From sequence record PQ850619.1: a stretch of 43,265 nt of DNA. The stretch is one strand, 5' to 3'. Source of the stretch: Escherichia phage MarieHeimVoegtlin_Bas70. Below are positions 3,374 through 43,085 of the stretch, piece after piece. The notes below the pieces were generated by a model, which saw only the letters and a program-made list of their open reading frames with translations, had not been told where the DNA came from and did not search any database. The stretch's first letter is position 1; every line of letters begins with the position of its first letter. The translations under genes were made by a program, and so were the position numbers.

Positions 3374-4417
3374 ATGAGCTTACTTACATCCCTAATCAGC
3401 CATCAGATATGGCTGCAACGCACCGCATCCGGTGAGGTGAAAGACCTCACGCCGTTCATTCAGGAGATAAGGGATGAAATCAAACGGCAGGTGCTGTTAT
3501 TCGGTGACGACGGTCGCAGCACTGCGCGACTGAATAAACTGTTACGCGACCTGGAAGAAGCACTAACCGGTATTACGGGTGACTGGCAAACAAAGCTAAC
3601 AGACGACCTTAAGGAACTGGCGGCGTACGAGGCTGAGTGGAACGTAAAGACACTGACCGCCAACGTAGACGCGGAATTTGTTACGCCTACCGCTGAGCAG
3701 GTATGGGCCGCTGCCGAGTTTCAACCATTATCATTGAGCGACAAGCCCGTTGATTTCACCAAGCTGATGTCTGGATGGGGCGAAACGGAAGTAGCACGTC
3801 TTGTAACTGGAGTTAAGATGGGCTTTGTGCAAGGTCAAACCACACGGCAGATTGTTAAGAATGTTGTTGGCGCTGGTGGACTAGCCGACATCTCAGAACG
3901 TAACGCGACTACGGTAATCCGCACCGCGCTGTCCCACGTATCCAACGAGGCCCGTAACGAGACGTACCGCCAGAACGACGACATCATCGAGAAGTACGAG
4001 TGGGTGTCAACGCTTGACAGCCGCACCAGTACGATTTGCAGGGTCAGAGACGGGATGACGTGGGAAATTGGTAAGGGGCCGATGCCCCCAGCCCATCCGA
4101 ACTGCCGGTCGTGCACGGCTCCGGTAATCAGTTCCGAGTTCGACTTCCTCGATAAAGGCGCAAAACGCGCGGCTAAAGGCGCGGAAGGTGGCACTCAGGT
4201 AAGCGCAGACACCACTTACTACGAGTTCCTTAAACAACAACCGGCGTGGTTTCAGGACCAGGCGCTCGGCCCGGTGCGAGGTAAGATTTTCCGTAACAGC
4301 GGTATATCGCCGGAAGAGTTTCGCGTAATATCTGTAGATGGTTTCGGGAATCCGCTCACGCTTAAGCAGATGGCGGAACTCGATAAACGTGTTGCTGATT
4401 ATCTGAAAGGGGAATAA
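3374..4417 (+). CDS. head morphogenesis protein (Mu F-like / SPP1 gp7-like minor head protein)
   Basis: 347 aa ORF after the portal gene, the usual position of this family. ATG start. Confidence 0.65.
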   Translation: MSLLTSLISHQIWLQRTASGEVKDLTPFIQEIRDEIKRQVLLFGDDGRSTARLNKLLRDLEEALTGITGDWQTKLTDDLKELAAYEAEWNVKTLTANVDAEFVTPTAEQVWAAAEFQPLSLSDKPVDFTKLMSGWGETEVARLVTGVKMGFVQGQTTRQIVKNVVGAGGLADISERNATTVIRTALSHVSNEARNETYRQNDDIIEKYEWVSTLDSRTSTICRVRDGMTWEIGKGPMPPAHPNCRSCTAPVISSEFDFLDKGAKRAAKGAEGGTQVSADTTYYEFLKQQPAWFQDQALGPVRGKIFRNSGISPEEFRVISVDGFGNPLTLKQMAELDKRVADYLKGE

Positions 4418-4878
4418 TGATGGGCTTTTTCAAAGTAACTGACGTACCGTCTCGTCGCGTAGTCCAGTACGCCCGCGTGTCTGGCTCTGGCGAGAACGTG
4501 GTATTTATTGAGGACGAAAGTGTACTCGGTACACCGGTAGATGATATGCCGTTTGCAGATAAAACCGGTATTGCGTTGCCCGCCGCCGGTATGCTTTATG
4601 AAATTCCGTATCTGGCGGACGCTGGCGACGTGTATTTCTCTGCGCAACCGCAGGACGCTGAACTGGCGGGCGGCAGCGCAACCATCACTGTCGAGGTTAA
4701 GGCAGGCAAAGCGCCGTATTCTCTGACCTGGTACAAAGACGGTAAGGAAGTGGTGAATGCGCCTGAGGAGGCTCTGTCTCTGACGGTTAATGCGGTCGGC
4801 GAATACTTCGTTAAAGTTACTGATGCCGATGGAGTAGAGGCGGTAAGCAAAGCGGCGAAGGTTACTAAGCCAGAATGA
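4417..4878 (+). CDS. Ig-like domain protein (possible capsid decoration or accessory)
   Basis: 153 aa. C-terminal segment KAPYSLTWYKDGKEV...GEYFVKVTDADG matches the Ig-like strand pattern also seen in the 8189-8539 protein. TAATG overlap with the upstream gene. Confidence 0.5.
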   Translation: MMGFFKVTDVPSRRVVQYARVSGSGENVVFIEDESVLGTPVDDMPFADKTGIALPAAGMLYEIPYLADAGDVYFSAQPQDAELAGGSATITVEVKAGKAPYSLTWYKDGKEVVNAPEEALSLTVNAVGEYFVKVTDADGVEAVSKAAKVTKPE

Positions 4879-4883
4879 TAAAA

Positions 4884-4908
4884 GGCCCCATTATGGGGCC
4901 TTAGTTTT
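4884..4908. terminator. bidirectional intrinsic terminator
   Basis: ggcccc-attat-ggggcc hairpin flanked by AAAA on the 5' side and TTAGTTTT on the 3' side. Sits between convergent genes ending at 4878 (+) and 4908 (-). Confidence 0.6.
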
Positions 4909-5111
4909 CAACGGAATCTTGTGTTTAAATCCTGCTCATGGACAACCCTCAGAACAGTGTCATAATCCCCGTATCTTCCAGGTTCAAATATATCTAATGC
5001 CTTGTAAGCAGACATTGCGTCAGGGAAAACCTGCAGAACCTTTTTAACCCGGCACAAGTCACCGTCGAACTCTTCATCGAACTCTTGAACTACTTCGCAA
5101 ATTGCATACAT
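4908..5111 (-). CDS. hypothetical protein (antisense moron in head module)
   Basis: 67 aa. ATG with strong AGGAGGTG Shine-Dalgarno. Own promoter at 5136-5167 and terminator at 4884-4908. Opposite orientation to the surrounding structural genes. Confidence 0.55.
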   Translation of the reverse strand: MYAICEVVQEFDEEFDGDLCRVKKVLQVFPDAMSAYKALDIFEPGRYGDYDTVLRVVHEQDLNTRFR

Positions 5112-5135
5112 TTTTCACCTCCTGTTTAAGTTAAC

Positions 5136-5167
5136 TGAATAGTACCCTATTATATTGGGGTGTGCAA
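5136..5167 (-). promoter_or_regulatory. sigma70-like promoter (TTGCAC-N17-TACTAT) with embedded AATAG-N4-CTATT palindrome
   Basis: Read on the minus strand: TTGCAC, 17-nt spacer accccaatataataggg, TACTAT. The 32-bp block is identical to 14240-14271. Confidence 0.55.
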
Positions 5168-5442
5168 ACTATTTATTTACGTATTCCAGTTATTCCTCCG
5201 AATTGTAAATGTTGGAATAAACTATTCGAATAGTTGACTTTTCACTAAAAATATGATAAGCTCCACCTGAGCTTGTGAAGTATGAACAAGCGACCGCGGC
5301 GCGGGCAGGTAACGGAGCGGGACGTAAGTCCTGAGTGTAGTTACGCTGACGCGTTCGGAAGGGCCATACTCTATTGCTTGTGTAAAAAGTAACTGGTTTA
5401 CTGAGATTACGCCGTTTCTATGTTTAAATGATAAGGACTAGC

Positions 5443-5469
5443 GCCCCGCTTTATGGCGGGGCTTTACTT
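5443..5469 (+). terminator. hairpin, weak terminator or attenuator
   Basis: gccccgc-tttatg-gcggggc perfect 7-bp stem followed by TTTACTT, just upstream of the spanin gene Shine-Dalgarno. Confidence 0.35.
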
Positions 5470-5486
5470 ATCGAGAAAGGGGAAAC

Positions 5487-5873
5487 ATGAATCTTAAAGC
5501 AACTGTCGTAGCAGGAGCATGTTTCATCATCCTGGTTTACGCACACGGCATCTACCAGTATCGCAGCGGATGGAACGAAGGCCGGGCTAATCTCGTTTCG
5601 CAGCAACAGCAGAAAGCACAGGCTGAGTTAGCGAAGAAAACACAACGGCAGCAGCAGGATGAATCGAAGGCCGCCGCCGCTGACAACGAAGGCAAGACGA
5701 AATCAGAGGTGATTACCCGTGAAGTCGTTAAGTACATTAAAACGCCTGGTCGCAGTGTGTGCGCTTTTGACCCTGAGCGCGTGCAGCTCAAGTCCCGCGC
5801 CGTCGCAAACGCCAACTCCATCCCCGGATACGACGATGATGCAGCCGCCGTGCAAACTGGCACCGCCAAGTAG
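5487..5873 (+). CDS. i-spanin (Rz-like inner membrane spanin)
   Basis: 128 aa. N-terminal transmembrane segment ATVVAGACFIILVYAHGIY. Then a Q/K/E-rich predicted coiled-coil periplasmic region. An overlapping +1-frame lipoprotein gene follows. Confidence 0.6.
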   Translation: MNLKATVVAGACFIILVYAHGIYQYRSGWNEGRANLVSQQQQKAQAELAKKTQRQQQDESKAAAADNEGKTKSEVITREVVKYIKTPGRSVCAFDPERVQLKSRAVANANSIPGYDDDAAAVQTGTAK

Positions 5874-5982
5874 CGACGCCGACGAGGATTTGGCTATCGA
5901 CGTTCAGAACGCTGAATGTGTACGGCAACTGAGGCTGAAAGTGTTTATGTTGCAGGATTACGTGAGGAATATTCTGGAATAG
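5719..5982 (+). CDS. o-spanin (Rz1-like outer membrane lipoprotein)
   Basis: 87 aa. GTG start with AGAGGTGA Shine-Dalgarno. Signal peptide ending in lipobox LSAC. Proline-rich mature region SSSPAPSQTPTPSP. Starts inside the i-spanin gene in another frame and extends past its stop. Confidence 0.55.
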   Translation: MKSLSTLKRLVAVCALLTLSACSSSPAPSQTPTPSPDTTMMQPPCKLAPPSSDADEDLAIDVQNAECVRQLRLKVFMLQDYVRNILE

Positions 5983-6064
5983 TTGCCTTGCATGTTGGAA
6001 TAATTTATTCTTGACATGTAAATCCGGGTGGCCCGGGTTCCAACGTCCAGGGGACATACTGACT

Positions 6065-6769
6065 ATGAATCGTTTTTTACGTTATCCGTTCCAGGAAGAA
6101 GCTGGGGCAGAAGATAAAGCTGGTGGCGGTGACGCGCCGAAAATGTTCACCGCTGAAGAAGTTCAGGCGCTGATTGAGAAAGAAGTTGCCGGGCTTAAGG
6201 CTAATCAGGAAGCATTGTTGGCGGAGAAGAAAGAAGCCGCTCGCAAAGCAAAAGAGGCCGAAGAAGAACGGCAGCGCGCGCACCAGGAGGCGTTAAAAGC
6301 CGCTGGTAAGATGGACGAGTTCGAAAAGACGATTCGTAGCCAGTATGACCCGGTGTTAGCCGAGAAAGACGGTCGCATCTCCAGAATGGCAGAGCGTATC
6401 CTCGGCAGCGAACGTAAAGCGGTGCTAGGCTCTTTCGCGGGTGACTTTATTACCCCGGAAGCAGTGGACATTCTTGCGCCGTTCGTTAAGACTGAGTTCG
6501 AAGGCGATGATGTGGTTACTAAGTTTGTTGGTGCAGACGGTAACGTAATCACGACTGACCCGGAACAGTTCCGCAAATACCTGCGCGAACACAAGGCGTT
6601 TTCGCATTTGATTAAAGCAAATGCAGCTTCCGGCGGCGGGGCTTCCGGTAGCAAAGGCGGCGGGGCCGCACCAGCGTTTAAAGACATGAGTGAAGCGGAG
6701 CGTATCGCTCTGTACGAATCGAACCCTGCCGAATTTGAACGGCAACTTAAAGCCCTGAGGAAAAAATAA
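6065..6769 (+). CDS. scaffolding protein (putative)
   Basis: ATG at 6065 with AGGGGA Shine-Dalgarno; track ORF begins upstream at 6011. Charged A/E/K-rich helical sequence. Immediately precedes the capsid gene with an ATGA overlap. Confidence 0.5.
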   Translation: MNRFLRYPFQEEAGAEDKAGGGDAPKMFTAEEVQALIEKEVAGLKANQEALLAEKKEAARKAKEAEEERQRAHQEALKAAGKMDEFEKTIRSQYDPVLAEKDGRISRMAERILGSERKAVLGSFAGDFITPEAVDILAPFVKTEFEGDDVVTKFVGADGNVITTDPEQFRKYLREHKAFSHLIKANAASGGGASGSKGGGAAPAFKDMSEAERIALYESNPAEFERQLKALRKK

Positions 6770-7818
6770 TGGCAATTACTACTATCGGCGACATCGTAAC
6801 TGGTAAAGAATCGGTAATCCTGTCCTACATGACAGAGGACCCGGTAGAGAAAACCGCGTTCTTCCAGTCCGGTATCCTTACCTCGACTCCGTATGCCGCC
6901 GCTATCGCAAACGGCCCGTCCAACAAAGCGGTCCTGCCGTACTGGAAAGCTATTGATACCTCTATCGAGCCGAACTACTCGAACGACGTATATCAGGACG
7001 TCGCCACCCCGCGTAACGTGCAAACCGGTGAGATGGATGTTCGCGTAGCTTACCTGAACGAAGGTTTTGGTCAGGCTGACCTGACGGTAGAACTGACCAG
7101 CCAGAATCCGCTGCAATCCGTGGCTTCCCGTCTGGATAACTTCTGGCAGCGTCAGGCACAACGCCGTCTTATTGCTACCGCGCTCGGTCTGTACAATGAC
7201 AACGTAGCGGCTACCGATGCATACCACGAGCAGAATGACATGGTGATCGACGTTTCCGCTACTATGGGCTTCGACTCCGGTGCGTTCATCGACGCTACCC
7301 AGACTATGGGTGACGCGCTGATGGGTAACGGCGGTGAAGTGCTGGGGGCTATCGCGATGCACAGCTTCGTTTATGCGCAGGCTCGTAAGCAGCAGCTTAT
7401 CGACTTCATCCGTGATGCTGACAACAACACCATGTTCGCCACCTACCAGGGCTACCGTGTGATTGTTGACGACAGCATGACCGTAGTCGGTACTGGCGGC
7501 AGCCGTAAGTTCATCTCCATCATCTTCGGCAACGGCGCTATCGGTTACGGTGAAGGTTCTCCGTCAAACCCGCTGGAATACGAGCGCGAAGCGTCTCGCG
7601 GCAACGGCGGTGGCGTCGAAACCCTGTGGACCCGTAAGACCTGGTTGCTGCATCCGTTTGGTTACAGCTTCACCAGCGCAGTAATCACTGGCAACGGCAC
7701 CGAGACTATCGCCCGCTCTGCTTCATGGCAGGACCTGGCGAACGCTTCCAACTGGAACCGCGTTGTTGAGCGTAAGCATGTACCGATTGCCTTCCTGGTA
7801 ACTGGTGTCGGGGCTTAA
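6769..7818 (+). CDS. major capsid protein
   Basis: 349 aa ORF after the scaffold gene, followed by a strong hairpin terminator. Call rests on position and size. Confidence 0.65.
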   Translation: MAITTIGDIVTGKESVILSYMTEDPVEKTAFFQSGILTSTPYAAAIANGPSNKAVLPYWKAIDTSIEPNYSNDVYQDVATPRNVQTGEMDVRVAYLNEGFGQADLTVELTSQNPLQSVASRLDNFWQRQAQRRLIATALGLYNDNVAATDAYHEQNDMVIDVSATMGFDSGAFIDATQTMGDALMGNGGEVLGAIAMHSFVYAQARKQQLIDFIRDADNNTMFATYQGYRVIVDDSMTVVGTGGSRKFISIIFGNGAIGYGEGSPSNPLEYEREASRGNGGGVETLWTRKTWLLHPFGYSFTSAVITGNGTETIARSASWQDLANASNWNRVVERKHVPIAFLVTGVGA

Positions 7819-11267: not shown

Positions 11268-12436
11268 ATATGGCTACAACTCCTTTTAAGGGCGCGAATA
11301 CCGCGCAATTCTATGTGGCGGAAACTACCCCTGGCGTAACACCGACTAACCCGGTATGGTCGCCGTTGCGTAACACGGGCGGCGTTCCCGCTGTAACCCG
11401 CGATGCACTGACTTCCAACGAACTGGACGGCAGCCGTGAAACTACATCCATCCGAACCGGTAACAAGCAGGTTAGCGGGGAGTATGCCATCGAACTTAGC
11501 TCTCGTAGCCAGGATGATTTCCTTGCGGGAGCGATGACTTCTACGTGGCAAGCTGGGGTAGAGATTACTGGCGCCGAAATTACGGTCGCCCCAGCAGGTA
11601 AAACATTCACCCGCGCTGCCGGTAGCTTCATTACTGACGGTGTAGAAGTTGGCGACCTTATTGCGTTCACCGACTTAACCGGCGACAACGCAAAACCGTT
11701 TATCGTGACCGCGGTTTCCGCTCTGGTAGTTACGGGCGCAGGTATTCAGCACACGCTGACAGCAGAGACAGTAACCACTGACGCAAAAACTGGCGACAAG
11801 CTGGAAACCGGTAACGCGTGTAAGACGTTCTCCATCCTGACGTGGTTCAAGGGCCAGTGTGGTAACCCGGACGCGTACATGCTGACCAAAGGTGTGGAAA
11901 TCTCTGGCTTTACCGTAGAGCAGGCGGTTAACGCCATGGTCACCGGCAGCTTCCCGTTCATCGGCCTGAGTCAGGAGATTCTTACCGCGCCGCCGTCTGG
12001 CTCTGATTTCTCTCGGGTTACGTTCACCGATGAGCCGTTCTCGTCGGTAGATGTGTCGGTGTTCGATGGCTCCACGCCGTTGCGTTGCGATACTCTCACC
12101 ATCACCAACGACAACGGAGCTTCCGCGCAGTTCGAACTCGGTAACAGTAGCGTGGCGTTCGTCGAACGTGGACGCGCAGCTAACACATTCTCTATCTCTG
12201 GCAAGCTGTACGACATGGCGATGATTCAGAAGTTTATCAACGAGCAGCAGGTAGAGATTAACTCTATTCTGGCAGGGGTAAACGGGGCTATGTCTTTCAG
12301 TTTGAAACGTGCAGAGCTTACGGCGGTTACACCTGAGATTGGTGGGCCTGAGTCAATCACTCAGTCCATTGAAGGCCAGGCTACCGGCAATCAGTACCAG
12401 TCGTCTATCGTAATTCAACGTATCACCTACGCATAA
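11264..12436 (+). CDS. major tail (tube) protein
   Basis: 390 aa T/S/G-rich ORF, last gene before a strong terminator and upstream of chaperone and tape measure genes. Confidence 0.55.
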   Translation: MNMATTPFKGANTAQFYVAETTPGVTPTNPVWSPLRNTGGVPAVTRDALTSNELDGSRETTSIRTGNKQVSGEYAIELSSRSQDDFLAGAMTSTWQAGVEITGAEITVAPAGKTFTRAAGSFITDGVEVGDLIAFTDLTGDNAKPFIVTAVSALVVTGAGIQHTLTAETVTTDAKTGDKLETGNACKTFSILTWFKGQCGNPDAYMLTKGVEISGFTVEQAVNAMVTGSFPFIGLSQEILTAPPSGSDFSRVTFTDEPFSSVDVSVFDGSTPLRCDTLTITNDNGASAQFELGNSSVAFVERGRAANTFSISGKLYDMAMIQKFINEQQVEINSILAGVNGAMSFSLKRAELTAVTPEIGGPESITQSIEGQATGNQYQSSIVIQRITYA

Positions 12437-12440
12437 AACT

Positions 12441-12466
12441 AAGGCCCCTTTCGGGGCCTTTTTCTC
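12441..12466. terminator. bidirectional intrinsic terminator
   Basis: aaggcccc-tttc-ggggcctt hairpin with AAAACT on the 5' side and TTTTTCT on the 3' side. Sits between convergent genes ending at 12436 (+) and 12465 (-). Confidence 0.7.
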
Positions 12467-12695
12467 ACTCATCAATATTACTTCGATACTCCCGTAACTT
12501 CTCCAGACTTTCAATTGCTTCTGCTAAGTCGGTTCCGGTGTCCTTATGCCCGCGAAGACCCATGCACAATAACTTCTTCAATGCGTGCTGTAGTGCGGGG
12601 TCACGGATGTCGAAGGCACGGAGAACATCGTAAACGTCTACGGTCATAGTGCTGCCGTGAGTGTTTGTCATTGTTCGGTTGTATTTTGAAGTCAT
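12465..12695 (-). CDS. hypothetical protein (76 aa), cassette member
   Basis: ATGA overlap with the upstream phosphoesterase gene, so likely co-translated. Last gene before the terminator. Confidence 0.5.
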   Translation of the reverse strand: MTSKYNRTMTNTHGSTMTVDVYDVLRAFDIRDPALQHALKKLLCMGLRGHKDTGTDLAEAIESLEKLREYRSNIDE

Positions 12696-14214: not shown

Positions 14215-14239
14215 AATTATTTCCTCAGTAAGTTACATG

Positions 14240-14271
14240 TGAATAGTACCCTATTATATTGGGGTGTGCAA
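14240..14271 (-). promoter_or_regulatory. sigma70-like promoter (TTGCAC-N17-TACTAT) with embedded AATAG-N4-CTATT palindrome
   Basis: 32 bp identical to 5136-5167. Positioned about 25 nt upstream of the 13888-14214 start codon on the minus strand. Confidence 0.55.
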
Positions 14272-14378
14272 GTAGTGTGCTAGAATAAGTTTGCGCCTAG
14301 TGTCGCACACGAAAAGCGGGTGGTTCCCGCCTGGCGCATTAACCATAACCAGTAACCTCTTAACCAAAGGACTAAAGA

Positions 14379-14795
14379 ATGAAACTTTCTGATTTCTATT
14401 TTGCCGACCGCCACGCCGCCGGTACTAAAATGCCTATCCTTCTGCCCAGTGGTAAAGATTCCGGTGAATGGTTGCAGGTCATCGGCCCCGATTGTGACGC
14501 TGGTGTTCGTGCGGGCCGTGCCTACACAACGGCAATTCGACGCCTTACGGAAGAACTTGCGCCATTAGATAAAGAGTGCGAGGCGCTGAATAACTGGGCG
14601 CGCTATAATGATGAGAAGGGCTGGCGGGTGATGGACCTGAACAAGCAGCTTGCCGTGGAAATCGTCACCGGTTGGTCATTCGACGAACCATTCAGCAAAG
14701 AGGCGCTTGCTAACCTGTTCGACCAGTACAGTGGGTTGGCAGAGGCCGTAGTTAAGCATCACACCGATAGCCGTGAGAAACTCTCGGAAAAGTAA
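14379..14795 (+). CDS. tail assembly chaperone (lambda G-like)
   Basis: 138 aa ORF directly upstream of the tape measure gene. Ends ...CTC TCG GAA AAG TAA, with an overlapping -1 frame open to 15157. Confidence 0.6.
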   Translation: MKLSDFYFADRHAAGTKMPILLPSGKDSGEWLQVIGPDCDAGVRAGRAYTTAIRRLTEELAPLDKECEALNNWARYNDEKGWRVMDLNKQLAVEIVTGWSFDEPFSKEALANLFDQYSGLAEAVVKHHTDSREKLSEK

Positions 14796-22313: not shown

Positions 22314-24245
22314 ATGTCAAGCGGATGCGGTGACGTTTTAAGCCTGGCGGATTTACAAACCGCCAAGAAACACCAAATTTTTGAAGCCGAGGTTATCACC
22401 GGTAAAGCTGGCGGTGTAGCTACGGGTGCTGATATCGATTACGCGACAAATCAGGTTACAGGGCAGACTCAGAAGACGCTCCCGGCCGTGTTGCGTGACG
22501 CCGGGTTCAGACCTGCGCCATTCACATTCGAAACAGGTGGGACTTTGGGCGTTAACGACGCTGACCTGGCGGTGTTGTGGCCAGGGCCATCAGGCGACGG
22601 CAACTATTATGCATGGAAAGGTGCCCTGCCAAAAACCATCCCGGCATCTTCAACCCCGGCGTCTACGGGCGGAGTAGGCCAGACCGCATGGGTTGCCGTT
22701 AGTGAAGCTGCATTGCGCCGTGATTTGGCCCTAAGCACTGGCGCAGGGCTAGTCGGTACGTCTTCGGGTCGCACAGTGCAAGGCGAGGTTGACCATTTCA
22801 AAATAGGGTATATGACACCCGATGATTTCGGCGCGGTGGGTGATGGTGTTACCGACGACACCGCGCCTTTGCAACAGGCTATTGACTATTGCTCAAGCAA
22901 CGGTATCGCGTTAAGAATCCCCGCAAAATCTTATGTTTGGAATGGCGGTATTATAACTTCACCCGTAACAATAATCGGTGACAGACGTCCTGATTACAAT
23001 CTTAGCTCCAATTCTATGTCTAACGGGTCTGTTATAATTGGCAATTTAAGATTTTCCGCAAGCCAGGTGATTATTAAGTCACTTGGTGTGCGTAGGCCTA
23101 CAGGCTCCCCCGGAGATTGTCTGGTGTTATCGACCGATAACTATGCTGGTGGGTCTTGTATTGTTCAAGATGTAGTTGCCGCGGGCCTTTCCGGTTCGGA
23201 CACGTACCACAGCGTTCTTGTTGAAGGCTACGATTCCGCGCATGTATCTCAAATAACTGGCGGTTATAATCTTTTTGGCCTCGCGATTAAGTCAAGAAAC
23301 GTTGTTGCCAGAGGCGTAATAACCGTAAGCTGTGATACTGGCGTTATCATTAAATCTGATAGTGAGTTCAGCACGGCAAAAAATGTGGTGCTGGACGGGC
23401 ACATTAATGTCGGTAATGGTGTTTCTAGTCAAGGTGTTTGGATTTACAGCACAACCGCACAACTTGAGCGTATTACCTGCGCAAACTTACAAAGCATCGA
23501 TTCCGCTATACATATGCGGATTAAGTCCGAAAACGTAGCTAATGACGTGCAAATTGTTGGGGCAAATTATTCAGGATCTACTTATGCGGATGTGCTCGTC
23601 GAAGGCACTTCGGCTGGCACGTTGTACAATGTTAGTTTAGATAGTATAACCGCAGTAAATAGCCAGAAATTTATGGCTGCAGGTTTCTGTGAACAACTGA
23701 TGGTAACAGGATTCTATGGGTCCCTGAAACCTGGCGCTCCCGCCGATACTGCGTTTGAGGTTAGCGCCGCCGTAGGGCTTTTTAGCGGGTCAAATATCCA
23801 ACTAGTCCGTCAATACCGCCGTGACCTAATGACAATGAATCTCGGTAACAGTTATCTTAATAATAGATTATCATCTGTTAAGGCGAAAGTAATAGGAAAC
23901 GGCAAACCTAGGCCGGGGTATAAAGAACAGAATCTTAGCGGCGCTGCGGCTACAATGATTGTTGGCGACAGTTTGGGGCCCTCTGGGGTTGTGTCTGTCA
24001 CCGCGTTATCCACCGGCAGTTCATTCAGCAGTATTGCTATTAATGACGACTATGGTCAGCCGGTTAAGCCAGGTTTTCTTCTAATAATCCGAAACGCATC
24101 CACTATCCCGTTCGTTATGAACCATAATCCAGGGTCTGGTGGAATCGCAAATAACGGGGCGGTGGGTAAGACCATTATGGGCGGAGACACTATAATGTAC
24201 GTTTTTGACGGGGCGAATTGGCGTCAAACTCCATCTATAGCTTAA
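22314..24245 (+). CDS. tailspike / tail fiber with pectate-lyase-like beta-helix domain
   Basis: 643 aa. Motif GYMTPDDFGAVGDGVTDDTAPLQQAIDYC is typical of pectate-lyase-fold right-handed beta-helix enzymes. Last structural gene before a bidirectional terminator. Confidence 0.6.
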   Translation: MSSGCGDVLSLADLQTAKKHQIFEAEVITGKAGGVATGADIDYATNQVTGQTQKTLPAVLRDAGFRPAPFTFETGGTLGVNDADLAVLWPGPSGDGNYYAWKGALPKTIPASSTPASTGGVGQTAWVAVSEAALRRDLALSTGAGLVGTSSGRTVQGEVDHFKIGYMTPDDFGAVGDGVTDDTAPLQQAIDYCSSNGIALRIPAKSYVWNGGIITSPVTIIGDRRPDYNLSSNSMSNGSVIIGNLRFSASQVIIKSLGVRRPTGSPGDCLVLSTDNYAGGSCIVQDVVAAGLSGSDTYHSVLVEGYDSAHVSQITGGYNLFGLAIKSRNVVARGVITVSCDTGVIIKSDSEFSTAKNVVLDGHINVGNGVSSQGVWIYSTTAQLERITCANLQSIDSAIHMRIKSENVANDVQIVGANYSGSTYADVLVEGTSAGTLYNVSLDSITAVNSQKFMAAGFCEQLMVTGFYGSLKPGAPADTAFEVSAAVGLFSGSNIQLVRQYRRDLMTMNLGNSYLNNRLSSVKAKVIGNGKPRPGYKEQNLSGAAATMIVGDSLGPSGVVSVTALSTGSSFSSIAINDDYGQPVKPGFLLIIRNASTIPFVMNHNPGSGGIANNGAVGKTIMGGDTIMYVFDGANWRQTPSIA

Positions 24246-24249
24246 AACT

Positions 24250-24275
24250 AAGGCCCCGTTTGGGGCCTTTTCTCT
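24250..24275. terminator. bidirectional intrinsic terminator
   Basis: aggcccc-gttt-ggggcct hairpin with AAAACTA on the 5' side and TTTTCTCT on the 3' side. Sits at the boundary between + structural and - replication genes. Confidence 0.7.
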
Positions 24276-24276
24276 A

Positions 24277-24411
24277 CTCTTCTGATAACTTCTCCAGCAC
24301 AAACGCCAGTTGCGCATTAGCGGCGTCTCTTTGCTGCCGTAGTCGTAGAACCTCTTCTTCCAGTTCCTTGATACGTTTTTGCAATGCTGGAATAGGAGCT
24401 ATGATGTTCAT
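24277..24411 (-). CDS. hypothetical small coiled-coil protein (44 aa)
   Basis: ATGA overlap with the helicase stop. Heptad-like MNIIAPIPALQKRIKELEEEVLRLRQQRDAANAQLAFVLEKLSEE. Below the ORF-track cutoff, hand-translated. Confidence 0.3.
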
Positions 24412-26836: not shown

Positions 26837-27121
26837 CTAACTATAATAGTTCGCTATTAGGTCGTCAACCTGTTTGAACGAACCAACGACAAAAACATTT
26901 GCACCACGTTTACGCATCCGCTCGTGCTCTCGTATCTGGTGCGGGTCTGGCTTCGTGTTTTCGTCTTTCTTAACCTCGACGAACCAGACGATGCCGCCAG
27001 GGAGAATTACCAGCAGGTCGGGAGCGCCGGAACGCCCCTCGTAGGAAAGTTTACGAACGAGGCCCCCAAGGGCCTCAAATCGCTCTTTTGCGTATTTCTG
27101 GATGCGGCCCTCTTTAGTCAT
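26837..27121 (-). CDS. VRR-NUC domain nuclease (PD-(D/E)xK)
   Basis: Start taken at internal ATG 27121 (track ORF extends to 27301 from a TTG). Motifs GAPDLLV and VWFVEVKK fit the VRR-NUC D...E.K core. Confidence 0.55.
   Translation of the reverse strand: MTKEGRIQKYAKERFEALGGLVRKLSYEGRSGAPDLLVILPGGIVWFVEVKKDENTKPDPHQIREHERMRKRGANVFVVGSFKQVDDLIANYYS
26840..26868 (-). promoter_or_regulatory. sigma70-like promoter (TTGACG-N17-TATAGT) with AATAGTTCGCTATT palindrome in spacer
   Basis: Minus-strand reading gives TTGACG, 17-nt spacer, TATAGT. Same architecture as the promoters at 30401-30429 and 32950-32978. Confidence 0.55.
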
Positions 27122-30341: not shown

Positions 30342-30400
30342 CGTGATTTCTCGCTTTTAAGTTTCGTTTACTCCGGGAAGCTGCCCGGTCAGTGATTAGA

Positions 30401-30429
30401 ACTATAATAGCTAACTATTCAGGTGTCAA
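30401..30429 (-). promoter_or_regulatory. sigma70-like promoter (TTGACA-N17-TATAGT) with AATAGCTAACTATT palindrome in spacer
   Basis: Minus-strand reading gives TTGACA, 17-nt spacer, TATAGT. Embedded in the 3' end of the 30415-30618 ORF. Confidence 0.55.
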
Positions 30430-32921: not shown

Positions 32922-32949
32922 ATCTGCCCCTCTCGTTTGGTATGGGCTA

Positions 32950-32978
32950 ACTATAATAGCGAACTATTCACATGTCAA
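32950..32978 (-). promoter_or_regulatory. sigma70-like promoter (TTGACA-N17-TATAGT) with AATAGCGAACTATT palindrome
   Basis: Minus-strand reading gives TTGACA, 17-nt spacer, TATAGT. Divergent from the HTH regulator gene at 33043. Confidence 0.6.
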
Positions 32979-33042
32979 TGGGCTTTTCTAAAATAATTAA
33001 TATGGTACTATTCACATATCAACTGACTAAGGAGTAATTGAC

Positions 33043-33258
33043 ATGCAACCATCTGAACTAGGTATCCGTGTAGAACAACGCCGTAAAGAACTCGGCATCT
33101 CCCAGCGCCGTTTGGCGGCCCTGACCGGCGTTTCCCAGGGCGCGATTAACCAACTGGCACTTGGAGTAACTCAGGACGTCCGCCCGGCAACGCTGTTCAA
33201 ACTGGCGGAAGTTCTGGAAGTAGACGCCAAGTGGCTGGCGTTAGGTGAAGGGGCTTAA
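33043..33258 (+). CDS. XRE-family HTH transcriptional regulator (Cro/CI-like)
   Basis: 71 aa. Classic HTH ISQRRLAALTGVSQGAINQL. AAGGAG Shine-Dalgarno. Sits in a divergent promoter region carrying the repeated palindrome. Confidence 0.7.
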   Translation: MQPSELGIRVEQRRKELGISQRRLAALTGVSQGAINQLALGVTQDVRPATLFKLAEVLEVDAKWLALGEGA

Positions 33259-35704: not shown

Positions 35705-35995
35705 TTACCGTTTAGCCAACCCTTCCAGCAAATTTTTATACTCTTCAAAATATTCCTCGACCAAATCATCGCCGAAATAGAAGTCGATATACTCGAGATT
35801 ATCTCTTACGTTAAGCGATGCCGACATGGTGCTTAGTTGGCGTAAGCTAATTAGCTTCATTTCTGTTTCTACGCAGAAAGGCCGGTAGGTATCAAGATGG
35901 CAAGAGATATTGAAGCATAAAGCGAACTCTCCGGCCACGGAGTGAACCGTATACACTTCGTTTTCTGCTTTATTGTGGAAAATTACGCCTTTCAT
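35705..35995 (-). CDS. hypothetical protein (96 aa)
   Basis: ORF overlapping the upstream HTH gene stop. No recognisable motif. Confidence 0.4.
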   Translation of the reverse strand: MKGVIFHNKAENEVYTVHSVAGEFALCFNISCHLDTYRPFCVETEMKLISLRQLSTMSASLNVRDNLEYIDFYFGDDLVEEYFEEYKNLLEGLAKR

Positions 35996-36174
35996 TTCAC
36001 GTTCTCCTTAATCCATGCTTCGACTTTATTACGGTCAAATGTTCCCGGTAAACGGCGGCCCATAACCTTAATACAGCAGTCAGGGAATTTGCCGCTGCGC
36101 AACCAGTTATTAATCGTCTGACGTGTCACCCCGATACGTTCAGCTACTTCATTCTGCGTCATATAATGCGACAT
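35992..36174 (-). CDS. small HTH DNA-binding protein (excisionase/AlpA-like fold)
   Basis: Start taken at ATG 36174 with AGGAG Shine-Dalgarno (track ORF extends to 36288). HTH in MTQNEVAERIGVTRQTINNWL. 60 aa. Confidence 0.55.
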   Translation of the reverse strand: MSHYMTQNEVAERIGVTRQTINNWLRSGKFPDCCIKVMGRRLPGTFDRNKVEAWIKENVK

Positions 36175-36205
36175 TTTTATATCTCCTGTTTGTTTGGTGA
36201 AACTG

Positions 36206-36234
36206 AGTATAGGATAGCGGGAATGTAAAAGCAA
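36206..36234 (-). promoter_or_regulatory. sigma70-like promoter (TTGCTT-N17-TATACT)
   Basis: Minus-strand reading gives TTGCTT, 17-nt spacer, TATACT, about 30 nt upstream of the HTH gene start. Confidence 0.45.
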
Positions 36235-36271
36235 CCAATCTCTGTAATATTTAATCTTTACAAAAATGTTA

Positions 36272-36301
36272 TTGAAAGTTCTTGACACATGTTTGTATAA
36301 T
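36272..36301 (+). promoter_or_regulatory. sigma70-like promoter (TTGAAA-N18-TATAAT)
   Basis: TTGAAA at 36272-36277, 18-nt spacer, TATAAT at 36296-36301. Rightward, divergent from the HTH gene promoter. Confidence 0.5.
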
Positions 36302-36527: not shown

Positions 36528-36592
36528 ACCAAGTAATAAGAATAAAGGCACAACCCTCCCCGAAGAATCACAACGGCAACGTAACTATTCTC

Positions 36593-36621
36593 TTGCACAC
36601 CCCAACATAATAGGTTACTAT
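36593..36621 (+). promoter_or_regulatory. sigma70-like promoter (TTGCAC-N17-TACTAT) with AATAG-N4-CTATT palindrome
   Basis: Reverse-orientation copy of the 5136/14240 promoter block with two mismatches. About 35 nt upstream of the gene at 36656. Confidence 0.55.
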
Positions 36622-36655
36622 TCACTTATCGAAACGAGACATAAGGAATTTAGAA

Positions 36656-38182: not shown

Positions 38183-38222
38183 CCTGTCCCGTGGTGACAA
38201 TACAAACACCAATAAAATTTAC

Positions 38223-38251
38223 TTGCGCACTTATATAGAATAGGATACTAT
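38223..38251 (+). promoter_or_regulatory. sigma70-like promoter (TTGCGC-N17-TACTAT) with AATAG-N4-CTATT palindrome
   Basis: TTGCGC, 17-nt spacer, TACTAT. Palindrome AATAGGATACTATT at 38239-38252. Confidence 0.5.
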
Positions 38252-38262
38252 TCATTTACACG

Positions 38263-38286
38263 AACGAGAGGAGAGACAGAAGATGG
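38263..38286 (+). repeat. 24-bp perfect direct repeat spanning Shine-Dalgarno and start codon (copy 1)
   Basis: AACGAGAGGAGAGACAGAAGATGG is identical to 38694-38717. Confidence 0.8.
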
Positions 38287-38717: not shown

Positions 38718-39229
38718 GTAACAAAAACGAAGTATTCGAGTACCTGATTGGCCAACTACGGCAGCAGCTACCAGTCATAGATGTAATGGGCGAAATCAAA
38801 CTGTGGAGCATAGACCGTAGTATTGCTGGTCGCGGTAACTATACCGACGAGGAAAACGCCATAATCGACGCTTACATCGGCCTGGAGCACAACCCGCACA
38901 AGCAACAGTGCGAAGACCTGGCGCATGAGGTGCAGTCACTTAAAAACCAGTTACGTGATGCTTCGTCGCAGATTAAGGATTTGCATCTGGCGCTGGTTCG
39001 GGCTACGGGTGACGCGGAAGCGTACAAACTTATCCGCAAACAGGAGCAATCTGGTTGCTGTAAAGAAGATACTCAGGAATGCCGCCATAACTGGCGATTC
39101 GTTAACGGAAAGGCTCCCGCCGTATGTATTAATTGCGGCGTGACCAAAACTGAGGAGTGTGGACACGTGTGGGAATATTATTACCCAAACGGCCGGCGTT
39201 GTACCAAATGCGGGGCGATAAACTTATGA
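38714..39229 (+). CDS. hypothetical protein with C-terminal zinc-ribbon-like Cys cluster
   Basis: 171 aa from ATG 38714. C-terminal CINCG...CTKCG. Confidence 0.5.
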   Translation: MGNKNEVFEYLIGQLRQQLPVIDVMGEIKLWSIDRSIAGRGNYTDEENAIIDAYIGLEHNPHKQQCEDLAHEVQSLKNQLRDASSQIKDLHLALVRATGDAEAYKLIRKQEQSGCCKEDTQECRHNWRFVNGKAPAVCINCGVTKTEECGHVWEYYYPNGRRCTKCGAINL

Positions 39230-39429
39230 CCAGCATCTTATTTATCTGGGTATTATCTGCAGGCCAGATGCAACTAGCGGCATCGGAAACGTTTTACTCG
39301 ATGGAGGCGTGCCAGTCAGCGGCACGCGCCGCTGAGAACGCGCACTTTCTGTTTCAGGGTGACAAGCCCAACGATTCAGAGGTACGCGCTATCTGCTCAC
39401 CTAAGCGACTTGGAAAACAGGAGAAATAA
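39226..39429 (+). CDS. hypothetical small protein with hydrophobic N-terminus
   Basis: ATGA overlap with the upstream stop. N-terminus MTSILFIWVLSAGQMQLAASE looks like a signal peptide or membrane anchor. Confidence 0.4.
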   Translation: MTSILFIWVLSAGQMQLAASETFYSMEACQSAARAAENAHFLFQGDKPNDSEVRAICSPKRLGKQEK

Positions 39430-41315: not shown

Positions 41316-41336
41316 TCTATTTTCTGCAATGACTAG

Positions 41337-41365
41337 TTGACTATTACCTACGACCCTATTATATT
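41337..41365 (+). promoter_or_regulatory. sigma70-like promoter (TTGACT-N17-TATATT)
   Basis: TTGACT at 41337-41342, 17-nt spacer, TATATT at 41360-41365. About 35 nt upstream of the gene at 41399. Confidence 0.5.
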
Positions 41366-41796: not shown

Positions 41797-41951
41797 GTGA
41801 ACAAGGACCAGTAAGCCAACCATTACGGGTAGGCCGTAAAGTCAGTAACACCCCGTTCCCGTCACGCGAGGAACTGATGAAACGCAACAGTTTCCCCGGG
41901 CCGGACAAGAACAAGTATCTTAATCGCATGTGGGGAGAGCGTAAAGAATGA
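41793..41951 (+). CDS. hypothetical small protein (52 aa)
   Basis: ATG with GGAGG Shine-Dalgarno, overlapping the upstream stop. Hand-translated. Confidence 0.3.
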   Translation: MSEQGPVSQPLRVGRKVSNTPFPSREELMKRNSFPGPDKNKYLNRMWGERKE

Positions 41952-42133
41952 CTGACCGCGAATATGAAAAGATGATGGTTGAGGCCGTTAACAGCGGCGT
42001 AGACATCGGACACGTGATGCGCGTCCTGAATACTAAAATCGCGGTAGCCGAGCAAATGGTGGAGTCGCTTTATGAGACGCGCCGCGAACTGATTAACCGC
42101 TTCAACCTGAACAAAGGTGACACCAATGCCTAA
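41948..42133 (+). CDS. hypothetical protein (61 aa)
   Basis: ATGA overlap. ORF only. Confidence 0.4.
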   Translation: MTDREYEKMMVEAVNSGVDIGHVMRVLNTKIAVAEQMVESLYETRRELINRFNLNKGDTNA

Positions 42134-42681: not shown

Positions 42682-42852
42682 GTGTTCAGCGACATCAACG
42701 CAGCAATCGAAGAAGCAATCTGGCGCCGTTACAACGGCGAGCAACAGCGTCACTTCTGCCTGGTGCAACGTGGTAACATGGTCGCCGTGGTGCAGGACCG
42801 CGATAACAAATATCCGAATGCGATGTGGACAACGAGGAATTTCTTAGGATGA
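42682..42852 (+). CDS. hypothetical small protein (56 aa, GTG start)
   Basis: Protein-like hand translation. ATGA overlap with the following gene. Confidence 0.25.
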   Translation: MFSDINAAIEEAIWRRYNGEQQRHFCLVQRGNMVAVVQDRDNKYPNAMWTTRNFLG

Positions 42853-43085
42853 TTACCAGCATTCCTAACCTGATTAAAGAATATGGCACGATGGCCGAGA
42901 CATGCCGACAAACCGGCATCAACGAAATGACTATTGCTAAGTACAGCAAAGACGTGAAATGCGAGCGCCATGTAATTTATAATAACCGCCTTATGACGCA
43001 CGTTAAGACAAGCCCGGTGTTATTCACGCGCCGTGGTATCACTAAAACAGAGCAACGCATTGCGCGAGAGGAGAGCGGGGAATGA
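42849..43085 (+). CDS. hypothetical protein with HTH-like segment
   Basis: ATG at 42849 (track ORF starts 42825). Segment CRQTGINEMTIAKYSKD resembles a helix-turn-helix. Confidence 0.4.
   Translation: MITSIPNLIKEYGTMAETCRQTGINEMTIAKYSKDVKCERHVIYNNRLMTHVKTSPVLFTRRGITKTEQRIAREESGE

Follow-up and report, generated by a model that had tools for sequence, protein, structure and literature searches.

Escherichia phage MarieHeimVoegtlin_Bas70 (sequence record PQ850619.1; the whole stretch of 43,265 nucleotides (nt), one strand read 5' to 3', is referred to below as the window) has a complete or near-complete Kagunavirus genome of the subfamily Guernseyvirinae in which two short blocks of the hexamer GGAATA and its complement TATTCC are situated immediately before the spanin genes and before the scaffold and capsid genes, respectively. 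We found that the motif is conserved in relatives at two loci per genome, with one extra copy in Cornellviruses, and we put the chance that the blocks are functional factor-binding sites coupled to two sigma-70 promoters at about even. Promoter-associated regulator sites as such are well known in phages; what is new is the element, its two-locus distribution and a possible link to the NinH family. No earlier description of the GGAATA element was found, and published motif searches in the subfamily report another palindrome.

The blocks that a sequence-only reading of the window had described are all present. The 12-mer ATGTTGGAATAA occurs exactly at 5209-5220 and 5992-6003, each copy being followed by TATTC (5223-5227 and 6006-6010), a second shared block, GAATAGTTG, occurs exactly at 5228-5236 and 5977-5985, and the perfect palindrome CTATTCGAATAG is found at 5222-5233. 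The best local alignment of positions 5176-5265 with positions 5960-6045 yields ATGTTGGAATAAnnTATTC, with 17 of 19 positions identical and a score of 28, a value that none of 2000 shuffled controls attains (mean 14.7, standard deviation 2.2); among 2129 further genome windows of 86 nt, the highest score is 23. In inverted orientation, TATTCCAG-TTATTCCTC at 5182-5198 also pairs with the reverse complement of 5964-5981, and the score of this second match, 24, likewise exceeds that of every other genome window. Furthermore, 6 of the 30 GGAATA hexamers in the genome fall within 5182-5219 and 5966-6002, that is, within blocks of about 40 base pairs (bp), and, given 30 sites, two clusters of at least three GGAATA within 60 bp are expected with a probability of only about 2e-4.

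Comparison with relatives redraws the boundaries of the shared elements. The conserved block of region 1, which had been taken to start at 5205, begins further left, at 5182; the right half of the palindrome CTATTCGAATAG is specific to Kagunaviruses, the Jersey-, Cornell- and phiEap-2-like phages reading TATTC(A/C)AAAAG, and so is the exact 12-mer identity between the two regions, with one natural exception (L016). The part conserved in all motif-bearing lineages is GGAATA-N3-TATTC, and the elements common to the two regions are GGAATA/TATTCC half-sites, arranged as an inverted repeat plus a tandem pair about 32 bp upstream. When the columns of the Kaguna, Jersey, Cornell and phiEap-2 lineages are compared, 25 of 26 half-site columns are invariant, compared to 9 of the 43 columns in the spacers (Fisher p=3e-10). 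With four invariant columns out of six each, the −35 and −10 hexamers are less conserved than the half-sites. As would be expected of the site of a dimeric transcription factor, the dyad half-sites are conserved and the N3 between them varies among lineages.

Each block is accompanied by a sigma-70-type hexamer pair on the plus strand. The top site of region 1 in a position-weight scan (13.6 bits), here the predicted promoter P1, combines the −35 hexamer TTGACT (5234-5239), a 17-nt spacer and the extended −10 element TGaTAAGCT (5254-5262), in which a TG lies upstream of TAAGCT, and would start transcription at about 5269; the top site of region 2 (10.9 bits), the predicted promoter P2, combines TTGCCT (5983-5988), a 17-nt spacer and the −10 hexamer TATTCT (6006-6011), with a putative start at about 6018. 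Across the whole 43-kb genome, only 25 plus-strand sites score 10 bits or more. Both P1 and P2 fall below the threshold of a stricter consensus scan, and both −10 hexamers are weak, with 3/6 and 4/6 consensus matches, as is expected for regulated promoters. The hexamers of each pair are separated by 17 bp, within the 16-18 bp of sigma-70 promoters. The earlier statement that neither region has a convincing sigma-70 −10 at the correct spacing is therefore not upheld.

In Ent3, the homologous positions likewise score best in both regions, and they do so in region 2 of the Cornellvirus SP-031 and the Serratia phage Tsm2; in region 1 of SP-031, the homologous hexamer pair ranks second. The P2 hexamers are identical in Ent3 and SP-031, and Tsm2 has a stronger pair at this position (TTGCCC-17-TATATT, 13.1 bits) and a low score, 4.5 bits, in the region equivalent to P1. 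Homologues of P1 read TAGACT-17-TGtTACGCT in the Jersey, TGGATT-17-TGaTAACCT in the Cornell and TGGACT-17-TGaTAACCT in the phiEap-2 lineage. The more distant Serratia phage Eta and Shewanella phage 3/49 carry unrelated consensus-like promoters just before the scaffold gene. Judging from these sequence comparisons, P1 and P2 look like sigma-70-type promoters, with putative start sites as given above. Several other assignments were considered and rejected. The TTGACA at 6011 has no −10 partner that would make it the −35 of P2 and reads TTGTTA in Jerseyviruses; the P1 inverted repeat does not serve as a −10 on either strand, its last position not being T and a −35 partner being absent; and the spacing of the repeats fits none of the patterns considered for sigma-54, sigma-E, T4 late promoters, P2 Ogr, CRP, TyrR, CpxR or ArgR.

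The anatomy of region 1 was derived from an alignment of 49 distinct upstream sequences from IMG/VR and GenBank, with SP-031 and phiEap-2 inspected separately, and proved to be rigid: TATTCC-N3-TATTCC, 16-17 variable nt, GGAATA-N3-TATTC, 6 nt, a −35-like hexamer (TTGACT, TAGACT, TGGATT or TGGACT), 17 nt and TGnTA(A/C)(G/C)CT. The distal tandem half-sites TATTCCAGTTATTCC (5182-5196; GGAATAACTGGAATA on the minus strand, to which they are assigned) are invariant in 14 of 15 columns over the four lineages, and conservation sets in exactly at 5182, whether a moron promoter or a terminator lies upstream. Tandem pair and inverted repeat are separated by 17 nt, within which a plus-strand TGTAAAT (5205-5211) is kept in Kaguna- and Jerseyviruses and is replaced by ATAAAT or AATAAT in Cornell- and phiEap-2-like phages. 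In the inverted repeat itself, GGAATA-AAC-TATTC (5214-5227), the half-sites are invariant and the N3 is variable; the centre of the repeat is at about −48 relative to the predicted P1 start, and in all four lineages 6 nt separate its TATTC from the −35 hexamer. The adjacent GAATAGTTGACTTTTC (5228-5243), which overlaps the P1 −35 and is one mismatch away from GAATAG-N4-CTATTC, is not conserved outside Kagunaviruses.

In region 2, two direct copies of GGAATA 10 bp apart (GGAATATTCTGGAATAG, 5966-5982, plus strand) abut the P2 −35, the first copy being part of the palindrome GAATATTC. The sequence AGGAATATTCTGGAATAGTTGCCTT, which includes the final five codons and the stop codon of Rz1, is nearly invariant in Kaguna- and Jerseyviruses, with two single-base variants (L035/L029 and L038), and the adjacent codons vary. 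After 7 variable nt follows the 17-mer GGAATAATTTATTCTTG, which is identical in 48 of 48 distinct Guernsey-type sequences, these having been retrieved with the exact 17-mer as the search pattern; Ent3 provides a natural variant, GTAATA. Because TTGCCT (5983) and TATTCT (6006), 17 nt apart, form the best hexamer pair, the inverted repeat of this region, GGAATA-ATT-TATTC (5997-6010), lies within the spacer and −10 of P2, with its centre at about −14. Cornellviruses, with a moron inserted upstream, keep only the GGAATAG of GGAATATTCTGGAATAG; in phiEap-2-like phages, GGAATATTCTGGAATAG is replaced by a second inverted repeat, GAATAAATTATTCC, located 4 nt before the −35 hexamer TTGCAA.

Regions 1 and 2 are the only places with G(G/T)AATA-N3-TATTC in the window and in Ent3, and SP-031 has both repeats plus one copy within the Rz1 coding sequence. 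Tsm2 has no inverted repeat at either locus and no GGAATA clusters, so that the two sites are present together or absent together. A genome-wide late-promoter motif was considered and discarded: clusters and inverted repeat are found at two loci only, and none is seen at the next late restart, 14215-14379. With regard to the additional Cornellvirus copy, the first codons of Rz1 (ATGAATAAATTATTCCTG, MNKLFL) hold a perfect GAATAAATTATTCC repeat with further GGAATA copies within 60 bp (1470-1530 of L055, which is SP-031, and the homologous place in L237, L246, L272, L278 and L284); this may be a coding coincidence or a third site within the cassette. A scan of IMG/VR with the 15-mer TATTCCARTTATTCC returned mostly chance matches in unrelated contigs, with the inverted repeat nearby in 5 of 122, and brought out the phiEap-2-like arrangement.

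In phiEap-2, the block occurs twice in region 1, in inverted copies that flank a small leftward membrane-protein moron and a terminator. On the phiEap-2 contig (L271, 58-445), the inverted blocks enclose a moron of 70 amino acids (aa) and a bidirectional terminator. The inner repeats, 16 bp long, are inverted copies that match perfectly (GGAATAACTGGAATAA / TTATTCCAGTTATTCC), and the layout resembles that of a cassette bounded by inverted repeats. The element thus stands in either orientation and at differing distances from the core promoter, and accordingly it is not a sigma-recognition element and behaves like a factor-binding site. Insertions upstream of region 1 always end at 5182, and the block travels together with its promoter. 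Cornellviruses have a leftward moron between Rz1 and the scaffold gene, and GGAATAG-TTGCCT...GGAATAATTTATTCT is intact beside the scaffold gene. In K1H-type phages, the region 2 promoter, the hairpin and the ribosome-binding region are kept as far as the start codon, where a different scaffold gene begins; in these phages (L006, L017, L028, L029, L031 and L033, at about 1980-2110), the scaffold protein has an unrelated N-terminus from exactly the start codon, and the swap is a clean module exchange at a regulatory boundary.

A hairpin begins 2-6 nt past each predicted start. At P1, the hairpin GCTTGT...ACAAGC (5271-5291, plus strand) begins 2 nt past the start; Jersey- and Cornellviruses have hairpins of other sequence in the equivalent position (ACGCTttcAGCGT, TTCGTtctACGAA). 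The P1 hairpin is followed by a conserved structured leader RNA (5294-5358, plus strand), an irregular stem of about 65 nt with an apical hairpin, in which 98% of cells are paired, compared to 28-46% in slid-partner controls, seven pairs show compensatory changes, and the G-U pairs, which would be C-A on the opposite strand, mark the plus strand. These patterns suggest that the DNA downstream of P1 behaves as transcribed plus-strand RNA. Neither Rfam, at gathering and E-value thresholds, nor ARAGORN gave a match for the leader. The non-coding stretch between P1 and Rz as a whole (5262-5472) also contains the conserved single-stranded segments CGGAAGGGCC and TATTGCTT. A 36-aa open reading frame (ORF) annotated at 5282-5392 in the related phages Bas71 and Bas75 overlaps the leader RNA; given the indels of relatives at this place, it is unlikely to be a gene. 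Further downstream, 25 nt before the Rz start codon, lies a GC-rich terminator-like hairpin with a weak T tract (5443-5462, plus strand), whose stem covaries between genera and which is missing in Tsm2. At P2, an 8-bp hairpin (6021-6039, plus strand) begins 3 nt past the predicted start and precedes the scaffold ribosome-binding site; its outer pairs covary (AAT/GTT or ATT in Kagunaviruses, ACA/TGT in Jerseyviruses, GCCGGG/CCCGGC in Cornellviruses, phiEap-2-like phages and Tsm2), and the ribosome-binding region that follows is invariant.

From the motifs, their statistics and conservation, the promoter-like hexamers and the RNA structures, all of which are directly observed, we infer a scheme of transcription starts, protein binding, activation or repression, and a factor to which an identity might be assigned. 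Under this scheme, the blocks would be the regulatory regions of two promoters of the host RNA polymerase (sigma-70). P1 would transcribe the structured leader RNA and then, past the weak terminator hairpin, Rz and Rz1, and P2 would transcribe the 5' hairpin, the scaffold and capsid genes and those downstream. The GGAATA/TATTCC hexamers would be half-sites of one sequence-specific DNA-binding protein, bound as a dimer to GGAATA-N3-TATTC, with further copies on the tandem half-sites about 32 bp upstream; recognition of half-sites at both promoters by one protein would in turn imply joint control of P1 and P2. At P1, the dyad at about −48 and its fixed distance from the −35 would be an activator-like geometry, and at P2, a protein bound over the spacer and −10 would occlude or remodel RNA polymerase, such that the factor could alter the balance of expression between spanin leader and scaffold-capsid operon, or could link the two blocks by bridging.

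This arrangement has parallels in other phages. The small protein p4 of Bacillus phage phi29, which is not a helix-turn-helix protein, has sites CTTTTT-N15-AAAATG between promoters A2c, A2b and A3, and activates the weak late promoter, which has a poor core element, or represses its neighbours depending on the position of the site. The likeness lies in inverted repeats at few sites within one short region, with positions relative to the core promoter that differ; however, the two promoters are here about 750-1150 bp apart, and binding is predicted. The lambda promoter PR' produces the short 6S transcript, which ends at the terminator tR' and is extended through the antiterminator Q. Similarly, P1 is a predicted promoter whose transcript of about 200 nt would end in a terminator hairpin before lysis and head genes, with regulator sites at the promoter, but no Q-like gene was found here, the RNA is conserved and covarying, and the T tract is weak. 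Antitermination at the 5443-5462 hairpin, suggested by this analogy, is pure speculation.

We surveyed the genome for proteins that could bind the half-sites. Pfam scans of 20 small proteins, encoded by part of the ORFs, yielded only two helix-turn-helix regulators and a NinH-like protein. The two regulators, a Cro/CI-type HTH_3 protein (33043-33258) and an HTH_17 protein (35992-36288), have clear helix-turn-helix domains; by tblastn, the former is present in all four genomes compared, Tsm2 included, and the latter is missing from the motif-bearing SP-031. The NinH-like small helix-turn-helix protein is encoded by the last gene before the small terminase subunit (42849-43085, plus strand). It matches Pfam Phage_NinH with 23.7 bits (E=4.6e-5), the curated cut-off being 29.8, several homologs with 65-96% identity carry a precomputed PF06322 assignment, and UniRef names one of them 'Protein ninH'; its structure model has three helices and a beta hairpin, with a mediocre predicted local distance difference test score (pLDDT) of 67.6, and a PDB sequence search returned no significant match. 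By tblastn, Kaguna-, Jersey- and Cornellviruses have the gene but Tsm2 does not, and the small ORFs before the Tsm2 terminase do not include it; it was found in 517 records of the phage collection, none of them from Serratia phages, and is also carried by the phiEap-2 and L101 contigs, both of which bear the motif. The NinH-like protein is the best lead as a candidate binder, but only a lead and no finding.

To our knowledge, no biological role or specific target has been described for the NinH family. Fis half-sites follow the pattern GNNYA/TRNNC, which is matched by GAATA and TATTC, and the general likeness to Fis and NinH extends to a dimeric helix-turn-helix protein and to palindromic sites with G...C ends, helically phased upstream of a promoter, as at rrn P1. 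The NinH protein of lambda, a dimer that mimics Fis, bends DNA and binds preferentially to a 15-bp palindrome of the form G-N13-C (PMC7166090). The repeats described here differ from such a site in that the invariant G and C are 11 nt apart, giving a core of 13 bp, shorter by 2 bp; only some copies, e.g. GGAATAATTTATTCC in L101, have the outer G-N13-C in full, and those of the window do not. In its full form, this idea would have the NinH-like protein, produced from the early/middle rightward operon, bind a compressed Fis-like GAATA-N3-TATTC plus the tandem half-sites, switch on the weak P1 from −48, gate P2 from inside its spacer and −10 and possibly bridge the blocks over the spanin cassette, a scenario that we put forward tentatively and consider unlikely as a whole.

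Several observations weigh against a common factor acting at both promoters or against this candidate for it. Because the positions of the repeats differ between P1 and P2, a single simple mode of action, such as that of a pure activator, fails to explain both. L101 keeps only the inverted copy of the element, upstream of a terminator and about 65-100 bp from the nearest promoter candidate. A fold search with the model of the NinH-like protein returned no significant match, the phyletic match of its gene to the motif rests on essentially one contrast of presence and absence, and, as far as the comparison went, at least two other small ORFs (39157-39429 and 41948-42133) show the same contrast. 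GGAATA clusters are lacking in a Klebsiella phage whose NinH homolog is 44% identical, although we judged this case to be uninformative. Finally, no transcription start, footprint or binding data were found in the literature on Guernseyvirinae, and the sole RNA-seq paper on a Kagunavirus assigns time classes per gene, without start-site resolution.

The half-sites could instead be part of an intrinsic promoter architecture that involves no dedicated factor, an upstream (UP)-like element touched by the alpha subunit of RNA polymerase at P1 and the spacer plus −10 at P2, their similarity being a duplication relic of the insertion of the leader, Rz and Rz1 beside the scaffold promoter. The AT-rich inverted repeat of P1, at about −55 to −42, is within the range of UP elements, the Jersey, Cornell and phiEap-2 lineages have (C/A)AAAAG after the repeat, at −41 to −36, the TATTCT of the P2 repeat is itself the −10, and the two blocks flank exactly one gene cassette. 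Nevertheless, we consider this explanation improbable. The G/C ends of the half-sites are invariant and the AT-rich spacers vary, which is the opposite of what a UP element requires, and the position-by-position match to the UP consensus, judged by eye, is poor. Moreover, the distal tandem pair, at −88 to −73, is outside the UP range, the P2 repeat is not in a UP position, a mere relic would not stay invariant over four lineages with flanks that are 70-75% identical, and the inverted copies are maintained in phiEap-2.

A host transcription factor that binds the half-sites and ties late expression to host physiology, for example an RcsB-type regulator acting on GGAATATTCT, is quite unlikely in our assessment. 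Phages infecting Escherichia, Salmonella and Enterobacter retain the motif, and AGGAATATTCT at 5965-5975 has 11 contiguous bases in common with the reverse complement of the RcsAB box consensus TAAGAATATTCCTA, but this RcsB-like element is the least conserved part and is lost from region 2 of Cornell- and phiEap-2-like phages. The ArgR box is TGAAT-N4-ATTCA, and GAAT and ATTC are 5 bp apart in both repeats compared to 4 bp in that box; GAAT-N5-ATTC fits neither the ARG box (GAAT-N4-ATTC) nor the G-N13-C of Fis and NinH. In addition, the host factors considered are also present in Serratia, whose phages lack the motif.

A recognition site for the terminase offers another reading of clustered hexamers. 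In bacteriophage P1, the pac site consists of hexamers clustered on either side of the cut region, within 162 bp inside the pacA gene. Jerseyviruses have been reported to package DNA by a headful mechanism like that of bacteriophage P1, probably from a pac site of unpublished position, and we found no pac position for this subfamily in the literature. This report, the clustering of hexamers in two groups and their occurrence in either orientation speak for a pac site. Against it, the groups are 0.75-1.15 kb apart, with a distance between the blocks that varies from 756 to 1158 bp and morons in between, and they are located 5.2-6.0 kb from the terminase genes, whereas known pac sites generally lie in or next to the small terminase gene. 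Unlike the bacteriophage P1 hexamers, those studied here are locked to promoter hexamers, and neither the fixed 6-nt gap to the −35 nor the embedding in the P2 −10 would be needed for packaging; we regard a pac site as very unlikely.

The blocks might also be conserved linkers for homologous recombination between phages, through which modules and morons are exchanged. Mosaic breakpoints coincide exactly with block edges, at 5182, at the Cornellvirus moron and at the K1H scaffold swap, and the phiEap-2 moron is flanked by inverted copies of the block. However, linkers need length, not invariant half-sites of 5-6 nt with freely varying spacers, and breakpoints at the edges of functionally constrained DNA are to be expected regardless, which leaves this explanation with very little probability. 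Finally, of the earlier suggestion that the blocks bind an activator or an alternative sigma factor, the protein-binding character is supported by invariant half-sites and variable spacers, but recognition of the blocks as promoters by an alternative sigma factor or by a polymerase of the phage is the most improbable explanation. Although the −10 hexamers (TAAGCT and TATTCT) are off consensus, the motif occurs at only two loci, at about −48 and about −14 and in both orientations (phiEap-2, L101), is absent before other late gene blocks, e.g. 14215-14379, and accompanies sigma-70-type hexamers at 17-bp spacing, the annotation of Bas75, which is 99% identical, lists no gene for a sigma factor or RNA polymerase, and Tsm2 has a near-consensus sigma-70 promoter at the P2 position.

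The reading of the blocks as factor-binding sites coupled to P1 and P2 also has to be set apart from the other repeated palindrome of this genome. Eight to nine sigma-70 promoters carry the palindrome (G/T)AATAG-N4-CTATT(C/A) in the spacer or −10: GAATAG-N4-CTATTC promoters are located at 5137, 14241, 26844, 30405, 32954, 32998, 36608 and 38238, with a related one at 41331, and the corresponding stretches, other than those of 5137 and 14241, are 26839-26868, 30400-30429, 32949-33022, 36587-36639, 38217-38269 and 41331-41365. This family probably marks early, middle or moron promoters and perhaps has an operator role as well; two copies flank the start of the HTH_3 regulator gene at 33043. The palindrome corresponds to the PHIRE motif published for Kagunavirus fBC-Eco01, tgAATAGTa-ccTATTat-T (PMC9825357), and has the half-site letters GAATA/TATTC in common with the GGAATA blocks, but the spacing differs, the genome-wide palindrome being GAATA-N6-TATTC, compared to N3 in the blocks. 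There are seven copies of GAATAG-N4-CTATTC in the window, four in Ent3, none in SP-031 and two in Tsm2. With their N3 spacing, the blocks do not belong to the GAATAG-N4-CTATTC family, which is resembled only by 5228-5243, and because both spacing and phyletic pattern differ from those of the genome-wide palindrome, the GGAATA blocks are a separate system.

Two of the palindrome promoters belong to identical 32-nt stretches (TGAATAGTACCCTATTATATTGGGGTGTGCAA, 5136-5167 and 14240-14271). Each copy is a leftward promoter, TTGCAC-17-TACTAT, before a small leftward gene among rightward structural genes, and Klebsiella phage vB_kpnM_D1 carries these 32 nt with 100% identity. The stretch looks like a portable moron promoter.

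The blocks are embedded in a locus of the following composition. The head-decoration gene (4417-4878) is followed by a bidirectional terminator (4882-4902) and a small leftward moron gene that differs between relatives (4908-5111). A non-coding stretch of 375 bp separates the moron from Rz (5487-5873, plus strand), in which Rz1 is embedded (5836-5982, plus strand); both spanin genes were assigned from their ORFs and the annotation of Bas71 and Bas75, and both are positioned between the two GGAATA blocks. After a gap of 82 bp, the scaffold gene (6065-6769, plus strand, start codon at 6065) and the capsid gene (6769-7818, plus strand) follow, and then the remaining head and tail genes on the same strand. 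Over 4800-6800, the window is 99% identical to Escherichia phage Bas75, and about 480-500 related records, from Escherichia and Salmonella hosts, are available. Elsewhere in the genome, terminator hairpins at 12431-12473 and 24240-24282 are 81% identical (AAGGCCCC...GGGGCCTT) and end rightward structural blocks at the onset of leftward genes. The hairpin at 4882-4902 resembles them, and all three probably terminate transcription in both directions, insulating gene blocks that are inserted or convergent.

Guernseyvirinae, comprising Kaguna-, Jersey- and Cornellviruses, are among the commonest isolates for the biocontrol of Salmonella and E. coli, with about 500 genomes in GenBank. For these phages, the present analysis provides two concrete predicted promoters, a precisely bounded cis-element with key positions and a short list of candidate regulators, and Serratia phages, which have neither the motif nor the NinH-like gene, offer a natural negative control. 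With respect to phage engineering, insertions are tolerated up to the edges of the element and not inside it. Should the blocks turn out to be the pac site, another gap would be filled, and should the NinH-like protein bind them, this would be the first physiological function for the NinH family.

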